A stretch of DNA of 59,873 bases, the filler included, from Candidatus Woesearchaeota archaeon (lineage in GTDB: Archaea > Nanobdellota > Nanobdellia > Woesearchaeales > ARS49): the NCBI GenBank assembly GCA_016188265.1. It is 7 parts of 6 records of this genome, joined end to end, with 100 filler letters (N's around TTAATTAATTAA, not from the genome) between each part and the next. Parts side by side here need not be neighbours in the genome. Positions count along the whole stretch, not along the records: positions 20,998 to 31,915 come from JACPID010000007.1; positions 32,016 to 45,189 come from JACPID010000006.1; 5 more parts are not named here. The stretch is one strand, 5' to 3'. Below are positions 27,001 to 33,000 of the stretch, in pieces. Position numbers: made by a program. Position 1 is the first letter of the stretch, and every line of letters begins with the position of its first letter.

Positions 27001-30000
27001 TTTTTATCAATCAATCTATTAACTTCATCTTTTCGTAGATCAGTCTTACTAAACCAACTTTTAAAGCGATGCCATAATCTTGGATCACTATATTCAGCAT
27101 TAATTAAGTGTGCTGCAATTTTATTTAATTCAATAGAAGGATTAACTCAAATCTTTTTCCTCTAACTTTATTAAGAATAAGGCCTTTAATAGGAGTATTT
27201 CTTTGTTTTGCAACTTTAACTGCTCTGATAGTGGTACTTAATGTAGGATAATCAGGGCTTGTTACAACATACAACTCATCTGAAGCAATCATTGTTGAAA
27301 GAATATCTCCATGAAGATTTGGTGAAGCATCAATAAGAATAAGATCATATAAGTCGCGTACTTGAGCAAGGCATTCTTTTAATCTATAATGATCAGTTAT
27401 TTGCTTTCCTTCAACACTTGCAGGAACAATATGAAGATTTGTTGCATATTTGTGAATTGTTTTTTGCAAAGGCATTTTTCTCATCAAAGCATCTTGTATA
27501 GTTCCTTCATAATCAAACAAACCAAAATGCATAGCAAGATTCGGTGCACTAAAATTTGCATCAACTAAAAGAACTTTTTGACCAAACTCGTGAGAAAGTG
27601 CTGATCCAAGATTTGCAGCACAACTAGTTTTACCTACACCGCCTTTTAAAGCTATAATTCCTATTACTTTTCCCATTCAATTCCTCTTTTTTTTAGTAAT
27701 CTGTTAATGTTTTATTATGCTGTATTACTGTTGTTGATCCTTCTTTACCACCTATTATTTTTTTAGTTTTTATAAATTTTCCCTTTTCTAGCTTTTCAAT
27801 TTTTCTTTGAAACGCCTTATAAATACTTTTTCCGCCATTTTTTTTATAAAGCACGTATAAATCACCTATTTTTGACTCTGAACCTTCTTTTAGCATATGA
27901 AGAATAAGTTCAGCATCTTCATCAACAGGCCCTTGTGTATAAACAAGAGGAACTGACTGTATTGCTTTTTCAGCGTGTTCTTGCAGAATTTTTTTACTAG
28001 CATAATTTTCTGCAATTCTTCCTGCTTCTCTGAGAAGTTGAAGCCCAACACGAATATCTTTTGCAAAAAAAGTTCTTTCAACAATAATATTCAGAGCAGC
28101 ACTATTCCAAATATTAGAAACAAATGAATAATCTATTCTTTGCTTAAGAATACCTTCTGTTTCTTGTTTAGTATAAGGTTTAAATTCTACAAGTTCAGGA
28201 AGCAAACGTGACTGTACTCTTGCTTCAATTTTTTGCAGCCAATCTGAATAATTAGTTATTATAAGAATGCTTTTTTTATAAAGCTCTGCTGAAAATGCAT
28301 AAAGAAAATCCAATTCATCAACTTTATCAATCTCATCAAATGCAAGAACAACGGGTTTTTTATTAATTATTTTCAGAATAGCATCAAATAATTCTTCACT
28401 TTTTTTATTTTGAACAAATGTGTAACCAATTTGTTGGCATAATTCAAGATAAATTTTATAAGTTGTATTTTTTTGCCAACAATTAACATACAATTGAATT
28501 ACATCATCACTATTTTCTTCCAAATCCCTCAACACCCACTTTGTTGCAGCAGTTTTGCCAATTCCAGGAGCTCCACAAATGAAAACATTTCTTCCATCCC
28601 TATCCTGCAATAATGGTTTTATGCAACTTGCAATAACTCTTTGCTGATAATCCCTGTATGGAAGAAGTTTAGGAACCCAAGCAGGATCTAAAGCATCTTC
28701 ATTCTTGAATAATGATTCTCCAGAACTTAAAGTGTTATCAAAAAGACCCATATGTTTGTTTAGTTTTCATTTATTTATAAAAGTTACAGTTATTCAACTC
28801 TTTTTAAACACTAATCTTCATTTATTGACTCAGTACTACGCTCTATACTAAAACCCATCTAATTCTTCAATTAATTGCACTAATTGTTTTGGTTCTGTGA
28901 TAAGAAAGTCAGGTTTTTCTTTTTCTAGATCTTCTTTTGCTTCAAAACCCCAGGTTACTGCTGCAGTTAATGCCTTTTTTGAATTGTCAGGATTTTTTCT
29001 TCTCAAATTTTTTGATGCGCGAACATCTACAACACTGTCTCCAACATGCAATGTTTCTTCAGGATCAGTTCCTAAAAGATCAAGCGCTAATTCAATAGAG
29101 TAAGGATGCGGCTTTACTAAGTTAACTTTCACCCCATTAACATCTTCTGGCAATTCAGACTTTGTAAGAACAATATCAAAACAATTTAAAATTCCTTCTT
29201 TGCGAATTGTTCTTTCAAACCCTTCCCATGCATTAGTTGTGTTAAGCGCGATTCTCAATCCTTTGCATTTTCCTTTTCTAGGACGTGAGCGTTCATAAAT
29301 TTCTGTCACAGCATCTTTTATTCCTGGAATTAACGATATATTTGTATTTTTCTTCCACTCTTTAAAATAAGTCCACAAATTATTTTTTTCAGCATCATAA
29401 TCAATTCCAAATAAAGCATATATTCCTGGAAGCCCCTCTTTTTTCACTGCAGCATTGTACTTTTCAACAAAAACATGACTGTAGTTTGTAAATGGAAATT
29501 TCTTGCTGTACAAATCAGTAACACAATGTCTCAACCACAAGAATTGGTCGTTCATAGAGTCGATGAGTGTTCCATCAACATCAAATATTAAGCCGTATAA
29601 AGACATAAAAAGAAAAAAAATTAAATTACTTTTTAATCATTATTGTGCTGCAATCATTATGTTTTCTGTTTTTTTCTATTATTTCAGAGTGCTAATAATA
29701 TTGTTCATATTTTGTTCACTCATATTTTTCTTGTACTCTTTTGAACATTTTATTACCTGATTTATATCAATATTAAATCCTCTTTTATTTAGTGATCTTG
29801 CAACAAGAACAATATACTGGCCAAGTTGTGTTACATTTTTAGGATCTTGAGTATAATGGCATTTTTCAAAATCAATCATGACAATTTTCTTGCCAATAAT
29901 AACATGCTTTAATGGATGATGCATTTCCTCTTTATTAATTCCCAATTTATCCATCATAAAAGACTGTCTAAATATTTCTGAAACTACTTTTTGAATATCC

Positions 30001-33000
30001 TTTTTCTCAGCTGTTGGAAGCCAGTCTTTTATGTAAACACCTTCAACAAATTTGTAGGCAAGATAATTATTGCCTGAAAATAAATATCTTGGGCCTATGC
30101 TGTATTTGTTAAGTTTTTGCAAGAATTCAGTTTCATTTTTTATTCTTTCTTGAGCTTGACTTTCAGGATGCTTTACTTTCATTGCAATCTTTTTATTATC
30201 ATAACTTCCAGTAAAAATAATGCCTCGTTTGCCTTTTGAGAAATATCTAGTGTTAACTACTCCTTTACTTTCAAGATCCCTTAGCTCAGGTCTTTTTTCA
30301 AGCTTGTATACATACAATGTTTCAAAAAATAATCTTTTGGTCGATAATTGCTCAAATGTAAGCAAGTTATTAGTTATTAATTGCTCAACCATGTTTTTGT
30401 TGGAAAGTGAAGAAAAAACCAATAAGATAATGCCTTTTTCAGCAAGAAACTCATTAACTTGATTAAGAAACAATTGAATAACTTCATAACCTTTCTTTCC
30501 CCCTTCTAATGCAAGCCTTTGAATTTTGTGGTCTTGGGGCAAGTAAGGCGGGTTGAAAATTATTGTATCAAACTTAATTTTTTTTTTAAAAGAAGAAAAA
30601 AGATTTCCACAGATATAATTTATTTTTTCATGTTTACTATATTTTTTTGAGTACTCAATTGCTTTCTTATCAACATCAACAGCATAAACTTGTTTTACAT
30701 TTGCCAAATGAGCTGCAGCTAAAGCCTGAATTCCAGAACCAGTACCCATATCAAGAACAACCCCTTGAGCAAAACACCTAACTTGGTATTCAAGCATATA
30801 ACTATCTTCTCTTGGAGAATATACTTCGTCGATCATTCGTTTATTTTTTTTAAATATTCTTTAATTCTATCAAGAATTGATTTAAGATAATACTGTTCGA
30901 TTTTTTCTTCAAATAACTCCAAAAGATTAGCTTGTTCAGCAACACTATACTTATTCTGCTTGCTTTCAATAAATGAATAATTTTTCAATCTTCTTAAATG
31001 CCTTCTAATATTTGGAGAAGTTATTCCTAAAAGAGGAATTTTAAGCTTTTTTCTTTCTTCTTTAACAAGATCTTCAATTTCAACTGCTAATACAGGCTCT
31101 TTACTTTTAAGAATAACATGAAATACATCAACAATAGAATCCCTGCTATCGCCAGGATTAAGCAAGCCTAAGCTTAAACACAACTTTTTAACAAGATCTC
31201 TGCCTTCTAAATTATACGGCTTAGGATATTTTCTAAGAGTTATTTCTGCAAGAGGGGTATCACGAGCTACTTTTTTATCCATAAACCCTCCTGAGCAATT
31301 GTTGTATAAAAAGATTTGTAAACTAAAGTTTTGCGTTCGCATGAAATTCTTTGAATTTCAGCGCACACAAACTGCATTGCAGTTTGTCGTGTTTTATTAA
31401 AGCAAAATTTAAATAGTGGTTTTATTCAGAATCTTATAATGCATGAAGTAACTACTTTTGAATTTATTTTAAATTGGCTGGTTATAGCCCTATACATTTT
31501 AATTATTTCCCTTGTTTTAAAAATGATGTATAAATCAAAAGAAGTTATTCCAAAAATATTTTTAATGATTTCTCTAGGTTTTCTTCCTAAGATTTTCTTT
31601 CACATTTTTGAAAGCTTGGCATATTTTAATTTAAATCTCCTTCCTTCACATGAAACATTACAATACGCCCTATTTAGGCATAGTACAGATTTTATTGCTC
31701 TTTTATCTGTTTTTTTATATTTTAACTGGTTTGATAAAAAATTCATAACACCAATTTACTCATTTTGTGAAAATCTTCTAAAACAAAAAAAATCTAATAA
31801 TAGAAAACGAAATAAATAATAGGACAATAGTTTCGTTTTCTAAATAGTGCGCGCCATAAAGAGTGTCCTACAAATTATGGCGCGTACTATAAGCAAAAAC
31901 CGTTAACTGGCAAATNNNNNNNNNNNNNNNNNNNNNNNNNNNNNNNNNNNNNNNNNNNNTTAATTAATTAANNNNNNNNNNNNNNNNNNNNNNNNNNNNN
32001 NNNNNNNNNNNNNNNTTTCCTATTTTATAGCTATTAATCGCGCAAGAATGCTTTGATTGCGCAACTACATTAACTTTTGAAATGTCAAATTGTTTCAAGT
32101 CAGAAAATTTAGACAGCTCGCTCTTCTCAAAATAAGAATCAATGCCTCTGCCATCAAGACATCCTTCAGATAGCACAAAATAAATTATGAAAAAACCCAC
32201 AATAACTAATATACCATACAGTGTGATTTTTTTCTATTCTTTTTCTGCATTCTCAATTATATCCAAATTTTACGCATATAAATTCTTTTGTTTTTCTTCC
32301 AGTTCCCTCTACAATGTTCATTGGCATGGAATATGTTGCTCTCCATAGTTGTTATTTTACAGCTCTTATATTTCTTCTTAATCATGCTTGCTAACAGCTT
32401 TCAACAAACTCTTCAACTTACTCTCAGAAAGTCCACTCAACCCACCACCTAACGACCCACAATCGTCACCATCAACTACAGACCACAAACCACCAACCAA
32501 ACTGGACTCGCCGGGATTTGAACCCGGAGTCTTTCCAATGCGAATGGAAAATTTTACCATTAAACTACAAGCCCAGAATCTTAGTGTTTAAAATTTCTTC
32601 CAAATTTGTAGTAAGTTTCTCTGTTTCTGAATTTACTTCTTCCTTGACTAAACTTAAAAGGTTTGTTAAATTGTGGTTTTGGCATTTCTATTTTTTTAAA
32701 ATCAGGCAAAGGCCGTTTTTCTATTTTTAATGATCTGTCATCTAAGACACGATTGAAATTATTATAGTCGCGTTCTTCTAGAAGATTTATTGCAATCCCT
32801 GCATGACCTATTCTTGCTGTTCTTCCAATTCTGTGAATGTATTCATGGGATGTTTTTGGTATTGAATAATTGATAATATGCGTTAAATGTTTAACATCTA
32901 TTCCTCTTGCAGCAACATCACTTGCTACTAGAACATTTATTTTGCCAGCTTTAAAGTCGTCCATTATATTGTTTCTTTTGTTTTGACTTAAGCCTCCGTG

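Follow-up and report, generated by a model that had tools for sequence, protein, structure and literature searches.

An Mtq2/HemK2-type methyltransferase fused to an ArkI-family kinase in Woesearchaeales

The fusion gene and its neighbours

The fusion gene occupies positions 29679..30836 (−) of the window, the whole 59,873-nucleotide stretch of Candidatus Woesearchaeota DNA that was analysed (C4:88236-89393 in the genome). Its single open reading frame starts with ATG, contains no internal stop codon and encodes a 385-residue protein that is represented by full-length homologs and a structure model. The N-terminal domain (residues 1–181; 30294..30836 (−)) is a class I SAM methyltransferase domain of the Mtq2/HemK2 type, assigned through TIGR00537, a structural match to N6AMT1 and invariant alignment columns, and contains YxPxEDS, GTGSG, NPPY and FE motifs. 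The NPPY active-site motif (residues 95–98; 30543..30554 (−)) is invariant in 120 of 120 fusions. The C-terminal domain (residues 183–385; 29682..30290 (−)) is placed in the ArkI/AQ578 (COG2112) kinase family by sequence, profile and fold matches. Its catalytic loop, K302-E303-E304-M-H-H-P308-L-K310-H311 (29904..29933 (−)), aligns with H130-G-Q132...K137-H138 of T. kodakarensis ArkI (TkArkI). The metal-binding DFE motif (residues 322–324; 29865..29873 (−)), which contains the counterpart of TkArkI D149, is likewise invariant in all 120 fusions.

A winged-helix protein gene (30833..31342 (−)), whose HTH matches are weak and below cut-off, lies upstream of the fusion gene. Its stop codon overlaps the fusion start codon (ATGA), and the two genes are therefore probably co-translated. 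The winged-helix family is found upstream at 15 of the 50 loci compared and is a conserved member of the cluster. The downstream HAD phosphatase gene (28848..29606 (−); HAD_2 match) is a local neighbour outside that cluster; a similar gene occurs at only 2 of the 50 loci, and a role as replacement eraser was rejected on this ground.

A total of 1873 homologous proteins (211–674 residues) were matched, and the best 120 of the 1873 cover 88–100% of the query. The fusion is thus neither a chance product nor an assembly chimera, and the single match spanning both domains that an earlier genome-wide survey had described in relatives is borne out. Database names for the fusion proteins refer to the methyltransferase half only; the kinase half corrects this annotation. 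In the literature searched, mostly open papers, neither the fusion nor ArkI in Woesearchaeota is described, and the supplement of PMC9095486 may already list a Nanoarchaeota homolog.

Motifs and folds of the two domains

The methyltransferase half scores 105.4 bits against TIGR00537 in a profile search (cut-off 87) and matches N6AMT1 over residues 3–180 in a PDB sequence search (E = 1.1e-8). Structural alignment with N6AMT1 gives a Z score of 22.1 and an rmsd of 2.3 over 173 residues, and EcuMtq2 aligns with a Z score of 20.3. The domain is the sole Mtq2 of the genome, and the genome's aRF1, assigned by motif and size (C2:43888-45033), contains the GGQ motif as GGQS. By orthology with archaeal Mtq2, the domain would N5-methylate the GGQ glutamine of aRF1. 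The single Trm112 match in this genome is a TFB zinc ribbon. Trm112 is dispensable for aRF1 methylation in living H. volcanii cells (PMC6144793), so its absence does not exclude membership in Mtq2/HemK2; Thermococcales also lack Trm112 (PMC5372719).

For the kinase half, the PDB sequence search retrieved TkArkI (E = 8.9e-14; residues 183–353) and G. acetivorans Ark1 (GaArk1; E = 1.1e-12). In a profile search, GaArk1 (E = 4e-28) and TkArkI (E = 5e-17) precede the next PDB kinase (E = 1e-4). The PDB sequence search reproduced the values given in the genome-wide survey's note (9e-14 for TkArkI and 1e-8 for N6AMT1). A new AlphaFold model of the full fusion (pLDDT 92.5, pTM 0.85) recovered the fold matches of that note, with GaArk1 and TkArkI at Foldseek ranks 1–3 (target TM 0.70–0.82; 0.84 at rank 6) and N6AMT1 at 0.72–0.78. 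Structural alignments yielded Z scores of 20.9 for GaArk1 (8yv5; rmsd 1.9 over 167 residues) and 20.6 for TkArkI (7vnx; rmsd 3.1 over 204 residues). The kinase half carries a strong positive charge (mean net charge +26 vs +6; +15 in this protein). A displaced Bud32 or RIO kinase was rejected because separate Bud32 and Rio1 genes are present; the TIGR03724 and PF01163 matches at the Bud32/RIO cut-offs are other genes of the genome, and the fusion is not among them.

Ohira et al. mutated 14 residues of TkArkI, and 10 of them are identical in the fusion as read from the PDB-search and profile alignments. TkArkI K32, G33, K51, E65 and K137 correspond to fusion K201, G202, K220, E235 and K310, and D149, N160, T162, Y200 and K201 correspond to D322, N334, T336, Y368 and K369, which agrees with the earlier list of retained residues and its YK motif. 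The remaining four are changed (R202 to K370, R95 to Y261, H130 to K302 and Q132 to E304). Across 120 fusions, G202, K220, E235 and D322 are invariant and K310 is retained in 119, and the catalytic residues are also invariant or nearly so in 66 kinase domains. The catalytic-loop triad is K-E-E instead of HRD (HGQ in TkArkI), and the alignment supports the earlier reading of the loop as KEEM, as in GaArk1. On sequence, fold and motif evidence, both halves of the description as an Mtq2/HemK2 (NPPY) methyltransferase joined to an ArkI-family kinase hold.

The K and E at the TkArkI H130 and Q132 positions had been put forward as a possible refutation, and the alanine mutants of these TkArkI residues are nearly inactive (PMC9095486; 5% for Q132A in the source data). 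Of 197 kinase loci, 196 have E at the Q132 position, among them 30 of 30 from Thermoproteota, the phylum that yielded Up47; xxE is the rule in this family sample, and the HxQ triad occurs at one of the 197. The H130 position is K or R in 28 of 30 Aquificaceae and in all seven named Archaeoglobi. An Aquificaceae locus with a peptide deformylase neighbour, as described for aq_578, reads R-D-E (L152), and A. aeolicus, a species of this family, carries Up47 (PMC10159004). Because both residues appear from these alignments to be natural ArkI states, the objection is weak and the worry largely dissolves. E304, at the position of the HRD catalytic Asp, is likely the base. We know of no K-E-E-M kinase that has been shown to be active, and the fusion supplies an enzyme of the K-E-E type with which the catalytic base could be settled. 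Because the deep kinase tree, a quick tree that carries long-branch warnings, does not resolve, the case for orthology to tested ArkI stands on family membership and single-copy occurrence.

Distribution of ArkI, KptA and Trm112

An ArkI kinase is encoded in 144 of 151 Nanoarchaeota genomes with one copy each, which is a housekeeping pattern. The fusion query matches 120 of 121 Woesearchaeales genomes. Among the matches listed, both domains lie in one match in at least 77 of the 121 genomes (67 without a stop), within about 3 kb of each other in 25, and on different contigs or far apart in 7; 11 genomes are unscored in this set, and 101 weaker matches lay beyond it. At least 102 of 121 Woesearchaeales have Mtq2 and ArkI either fused or next to each other, as the survey had proposed for the order. 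In other orders of the class, ArkI is stand-alone in 28 of 34 and adjoins Mtq2 at none of 24 loci. ArkI is thus not special to Woesearchaeales. The fusion is confined to that order, in one open frame in at least 67 of the 121 genomes. Six further fused loci bear the title 'Methanosarcinales'; those included in the tree group within Woesearchaeales proteins, and no McrA was found in the five genomes so titled, of uncertain completeness, that were tested (four fused, one kinase-MGMT); they are probably mislabelled, and an occurrence outside Woesearchaeales was rejected.

The gene cluster in Woesearchaeales has the order wHTH-Mtq2-ArkI-MGMT><TFB(-Trm112). The MGMT-like gene is linked to the kinase at 28 of 50 loci (7 fused, 21 separate); this genome contains no MGMT-like gene. 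In split pairs, other genes often lie between Mtq2 and ArkI. Fused and split forms are intermingled on the tree with 10 changes, which suggests repeated fusion and fission, and an AU test does not reject one origin for all split forms (p = 0.057). Plasmid and phage collections contain no ArkI match, and the matches listed include no RNA holder.

KptA, the eraser of the mark, was not found in any of the 151 Nanoarchaeota genomes by a homology search that recovered 31 of 31 Archaeoglobi. The absence claimed from a smaller sample is confirmed; it is also common among ArkI bearers. KptA is lacking in 69 of 85 ArkI-bearing Thermoproteota (found in 17 of 101 Thermoproteota, 16 of them among the 85; 13 of 77 ArkI bearers once the 8 weakest kinase matches are dropped), and S. 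acidocaldarius, a control that has Up47, yields no KptA match. Absence of KptA as a DPANN speciality was therefore rejected. Trm112, counted as short frames with E below 1e-6, occurs in 18 of 151 genomes; from 86 raw matches, this count leaves aside some 7 weaker short frames and every match in a frame over 300 residues, the latter taken as TFB zinc ribbons. With fusion scored as an open frame of at least 365 residues, 9 of 81 fused genomes carry Trm112, as do 3 of 35 other Woesearchaeales (p = 1, Fisher test; related genomes are not independent). Trm112 is indeed missing here, but its absence is unlinked to the fusion, and replacement of Trm112 by the kinase is not supported.

The Up47 phosphate stabilises tRNA. 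In PMC9095486, this mark and its writer ArkI are presented as a reversible adaptation to heat that occurs chiefly in thermophilic archaea. This genome lacks reverse gyrase and a DTW/acp3U writer, and its composition indicates a growth temperature of 46 °C (IVYWREL; CvP 5.1), a rough value in an AT-rich genome. U47, previously noted in the tRNA loops, is found in 5-nt U47-C48 loops in 10 of 35 tRNA calls, the predicted substrates. Such 5-nt variable loops are common in tRNAs generally and show only that substrates exist.

Proposed function and comparison with known systems

The evidence makes it probable that the fusion is a housekeeping enzyme with two functions, its domains having merged from neighbours and kept separate jobs. 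The N-terminal domain would use SAM and NPPY to methylate aRF1 without Trm112. The C-terminal domain would bind ATP-Mg via G202, K220, E235 and D322, hold class I tRNA through its basic surface and YK helix, and pass the γ-phosphate to the 2'-OH of U47 where the variable loop has 5 nt. As KptA is absent, this mark would most likely be permanent, with a possible role in folding or in protection from nucleases instead of as a heat-regulated switch. The fusion may have arisen in Woesearchaeales from a co-transcribed cluster (wHTH, Mtq2, ArkI, MGMT-like, convergent TFB and sometimes Trm112) whose neighbours merge and part freely; gene order is a likelier source of it than a new pathway.

A physical coupling of the same two activities, in which the kinase stands in for Trm112 by stabilising or activating Mtq2, or the domains share binding of a tRNA-shaped substrate (tRNA or its mimic aRF1), is rather unlikely. 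The linkage in at least 102 of 121 genomes, the pTM of 0.85 with a direct strand-to-helix junction, the TkArkI alignment that reaches model residue 152 in the methyltransferase and the missing Trm112 would fit it. However, Trm112 is no rarer with the fusion (p = 1, among non-independent kin), H. volcanii methylates aRF1 without Trm112, Thermococcales lack it, and other orders keep the genes apart. An active AQ578-family kinase with another target, either a different RNA site or a protein (aRF1, aEF1A), is improbable. The two loop differences from TkArkI and the retention of the kinase in cells with no obvious heat-stability need would suit such a target, but the loop variants are those of Aquificaceae and Archaeoglobi, the YK helix, basic surface and NxT are kept, and tested ArkI homologs, bacterial ones included, label only class I tRNA in total RNA (PMC9095486 peer-review file).

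It is quite improbable that the Mtq2-ArkI(-MGMT-like) module is one coupled machine, in which the 2'-phosphate would be methyl-capped into an eraser-proof tRNA modification of a new kind or both domains would act on the tRNA-shaped release factor; in the latter case no RNA kinase before it would have been tied to translation termination. WbdD, a methyltransferase-kinase, phosphomethylates O-antigen. A similar sequential reaction here, with a kinase-added phosphate capped by a methyl group (a methylated 2'-phosphate) and an MGMT-like partner handling methyls, is very improbable. The full-length WbdD alignment (Z 18.4), the missing eraser and the MGMT-like genes linked at 28 of 50 loci would fit it, but with an rmsd of 7.6–8.3 Å and 14–16% identity the WbdD match amounts to two widespread folds that share an order. 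The methyltransferase, the sole Mtq2, is a nitrogen methyltransferase of the canonical NPPY type, and this genome lacks the MGMT-like gene. It is scarcely credible that the C-terminal domain is a pseudokinase, one that would bind nucleotide or RNA but catalyse nothing. The absence of the HRD, HGD and HGQ triads and database names that cover only the methyltransferase would fit a pseudokinase, but the key residues are invariant (K310 in 119 of 120) and stand-alone proteins of Archaeoglobi, Aquificaceae and other Nanoarchaeota orders carry the same loop.

If the bifunctional housekeeping enzyme is active, Up47 would be a core, mostly unerased archaeal tRNA mark with a role beyond heat tolerance, as its writer is present in 144 of 151 very-small-genome Nanoarchaeota and its eraser is found in none of the 151 and is also lacking in most Thermoproteota that have ArkI. 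The predicted activity is directly testable in a published E. coli system.

Among known systems, the Bud32/RIO atypical kinases belong to the same superfamily but give only a weak profile match (NF011461, E = 2.8e-5) and are separated from the ArkI set by very long branches. WbdD (PDB 4azw, 4azt) has the same domain order, methyltransferase then kinase, but fits poorly over the whole chain (rmsd about 8 Å, about 15% identity), and both domains are from unrelated subfamilies. WbdD acts on polysaccharide. Archaeal Mtq2/HemK2/N6AMT1 (TIGR00537; H. volcanii Hvo_2744, PMC6144793; E. cuniculi Mtq2, 3q87) shares the class I fold, YxPxEDS, GTGSG, NPPY and a C-terminal FE, and is likewise a sole copy in a genome with aRF1 GGQ; the fusion differs in its kinase domain and in its genome lacking Trm112, the usual but not obligatory partner. 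Unlike the described ArkI systems, the kinase is fused C-terminally to Mtq2 (in relatives also to an MGMT-like domain), K/E replace TkArkI H130/Q132, and the host is a small-genome non-hyperthermophile without KptA. With the ArkI/Ark1 U47 2'-O-kinases (T. kodakarensis TK2051, 7vnx, PMC9095486; G. acetivorans, 8yv4/8yv5; A. aeolicus aq_578, PMC10159004), the fusion shares a minimal kinase fold without subdomains VIII and X, DFE, NxT, the C-terminal YK helix and the basic surface and, with GaArk1, the K-E-E-M loop.

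The fusion gene and its two domains

The Mtq2–ArkI fusion gene on contig C4 (window 29679–30836, minus strand) is a single ORF of 385 residues in a 0.92-Mb genome rated 98% complete, and its start codon overlaps the stop codon of an upstream winged-helix gene in a shared ATGA. The N-terminal 181 residues pass the TIGR00537 (HemK2/Mtq2) cut-off and contain NPPY. The C-terminal 203 residues gave no match in a Pfam search and resemble TkArkI (E 8.9e-14) and G. acetivorans Ark1 (GaArk1; E 1.1e-12) among PDB sequences. With the structure model (pLDDT 92.5, pTM 0.85), Foldseek ranked GaArk1 and TkArkI at the top, and VIA Z scores were 22.1 for N6AMT1, 20.9 for GaArk1 and 20.6 for TkArkI. 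Both domains are covered in every one of the best 120 of 1873 database matches, whose alignment contains invariant residues in each domain. Bud32 and Rio1 are distinct genes elsewhere in the genome, and a genome search found no second Mtq2. The gene is a real, conserved fusion of two domains from known families that is not annotated as such, in agreement with the genome-wide survey's note, which had joined Mtq2 to an ArkI-family kinase in one ORF. Most likely, the N-terminal domain would methylate the glutamine of the aRF1 GGQ motif and the C-terminal domain would place a permanent 2'-phosphate on tRNA U47, each acting independently of the other.

Because the window concatenates seven separate contig pieces across N runs, neighbours past position 31915 are not contiguous with the fusion gene. 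A MinD-like gene (183 residues, apparently truncated) and Orc1/Cdc6 lie directly downstream on the same strand (27125–28751). An intergenic repeat of ∼95 nt (26739–26839 and 31796–31899) occurs here in two copies, folds into two hairpins and has 11 genome matches of 80 nt or more; an Rfam scan of window 26600–31916 yielded no family above the gathering score, and the repeat is either REP/MITE-like or an unfamiliar RNA. A second repeat (4970–5243), rich in palindromes and often near contig ends, matches the genome at 26 places, and 9 of these matches are at least 80 nt long.

Distribution and gene context

The fusion query matched 120 of 121 Woesearchaeales genomes (including one unpublished genome, G105, on which nothing depends by itself), with one spanning match in 77 (67 without a stop), adjacent matches in 25, separate matches in 7 and unscorable matches in 11, which bears out the claim that the domains are fused or adjacent across the order. 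In the Nanoarchaeota phylum sample, the kinase is present in 144 of 151 genomes. The other orders carry it in 28 of 34 genomes, in open frames of up to 315 residues, and Mtq2 adjoins it at none of 24 loci; a 0.49-Mb genome (G150) encodes a stand-alone kinase of 167 residues with a K-E-E-M loop. At the stand-alone ArkI loci of these orders (L207–L226, L132, L141, L142, L146) another arrangement is conserved: ArkI is divergent from genes for large membrane or surface proteins and has primase-like, KsgA-like and Rpp21-like genes nearby, as named by reading of the sequences. The Woesearchaeales-type fusion also occurs in Methanosarcinales-titled records (L070, L079, L088, L101, L110, L111); these titles are likely mislabelled because the tested genomes span 0.7–2.1 Mb and McrA was not found in them.

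The usual Woesearchaeales gene order is wHTH, Mtq2, ArkI and an MGMT-like gene, converging on TFB. Among 50 loci, wHTH is found in 15 and TFB in 19, and the PF01035 MGMT-like gene is separate in 21 and joined to the kinase in 7. Triple fusions (e.g. loci L039 and L040; also L063 and L074) and kinase–MGMT fusions (L036, L048, L049, L050, L057, L060, L069, L092) were observed. The MGMT-like partner often fused to the kinase is single-domain and retains the active-site cysteine of PCHRV. A genome search found no MGMT-like gene in this genome; therefore, this partner is not required.

In a two-domain tree of 46 fused and 14 split forms (loci L013, L017, L042 and other orders excluded), the two forms are intermingled, with 10 changes versus a shuffled mean of 12.7, and the AU test did not reject a single origin of the split state (p 0.057). 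That the two domains are coupled, as their fusion might suggest, is unlikely.

Substrates, eraser and activator

Five-nucleotide loops ending in U47–C48, the ArkI specificity given in PMC10622864 and in the peer review of PMC9095486, occur in 10 of 35 tRNA calls (9 distinct genes), in line with the earlier remark that the tRNAs carry U47. Action of the kinase on another target is given a small chance. In archaea, Up47 is usually followed by m5C48 (PMC10159004). A Trm4-like tRNA m5C48/49 methyltransferase gene lies at window 35336–36340 (contig C5; best match NF040814, below cut-off). Genome searches found neither a DTW acp3U writer nor reverse gyrase, and composition points to a mesophilic or mildly thermophilic host; some relatives are titled in their records as groundwater isolates.

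KptA, previously reported in 0 of 5 genomes, is found in 0 of 151 Nanoarchaeota genomes; the same kind of search detected it in 31 of 31 Archaeoglobi and 17 of 101 Thermoproteota. Of the 85 Thermoproteota with ArkI, 69 have no KptA either, and KptA-based reversal is confined to a minority of the sampled ArkI genomes. Most sampled Archaeoglobi (G375–G404) have two KptA/Tpt1 matches.

The sole Trm112 match in this genome is the zinc ribbon of TFB. Trm112, noted earlier in 5 of 31 genomes, occurs as a true short gene in 18 of 151 Nanoarchaeota, unrelated to fusion (9 of 81 fused, 3 of 35 others). In 10 of 12 Woesearchaeales cases the gene lies beside TFB, no more than a few kb from the kinase, which supports the Mtq2 assignment. 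H. volcanii aRF1 is methylated in vivo without Trm112 (PMC6144793), and Trm112 is missing from Thermococcales and Methanobacteriales (PMC5372719).

Catalytic loop and comparison with known enzymes

The survey's note had regarded replacement of TkArkI H130 and Q132, whose alanine mutants are almost inactive (Ohira et al., PMC9095486), as grounds for refutation. The residues do differ (K302 and E304), but the family survey weakens that objection. To gather ArkI-family loci from other lineages, GTDB genomes were scanned for a motif, which gave 66 loci, 58 of them kinases; genome searches around these were positive in 36 of 41 Aquificaceae and 85 of 101 Thermoproteota, and the comparison took in the 30 best loci from each group. 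Of the 197 loci, among which some genomes appear twice, 196 have E at the Q132 position. At the H130 position, H stands in all 30 best Thermoproteota loci, K or R in 28 of the 30 best Aquificaceae loci, and K in each of the 7 named Archaeoglobi and the 108 loci labelled Nanoarchaeota. A. aeolicus carries Up47 in vivo and its aq_578 adjoins peptide deformylase (PMC10159004); a locus with the same neighbour (L152) has an R-D-E loop. On these grounds, the HGQ loop of Thermococcus is the unusual state, and K-x-E would be compatible with a working enzyme, judging from the family. The profile of the Nanoarchaeota kinases could be aligned over its full length to a Thermoproteota member, at a probability of 99.8.

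Literature searches, which did not cover the PMC9095486 supplementary distribution figure or the GaArk1 paper, found no description of the Mtq2–ArkI combination or of near-universal ArkI in Nanoarchaeota; a text search of a preprint from 2026 on complete genomes of the phylum likewise found neither, and the passages of PMC5007285 on AQ578 name it just as an atypical kinase family. WbdD-like phosphomethylation with an MGMT-like partner, which this genome lacks, is very improbable, and a C-terminal pseudokinase, despite the K and E replacements, is the least probable reading. WbdD matches the fusion structurally over its whole length at an rmsd of about 8 Å, a likeness that reflects the shared arrangement of two widespread folds.
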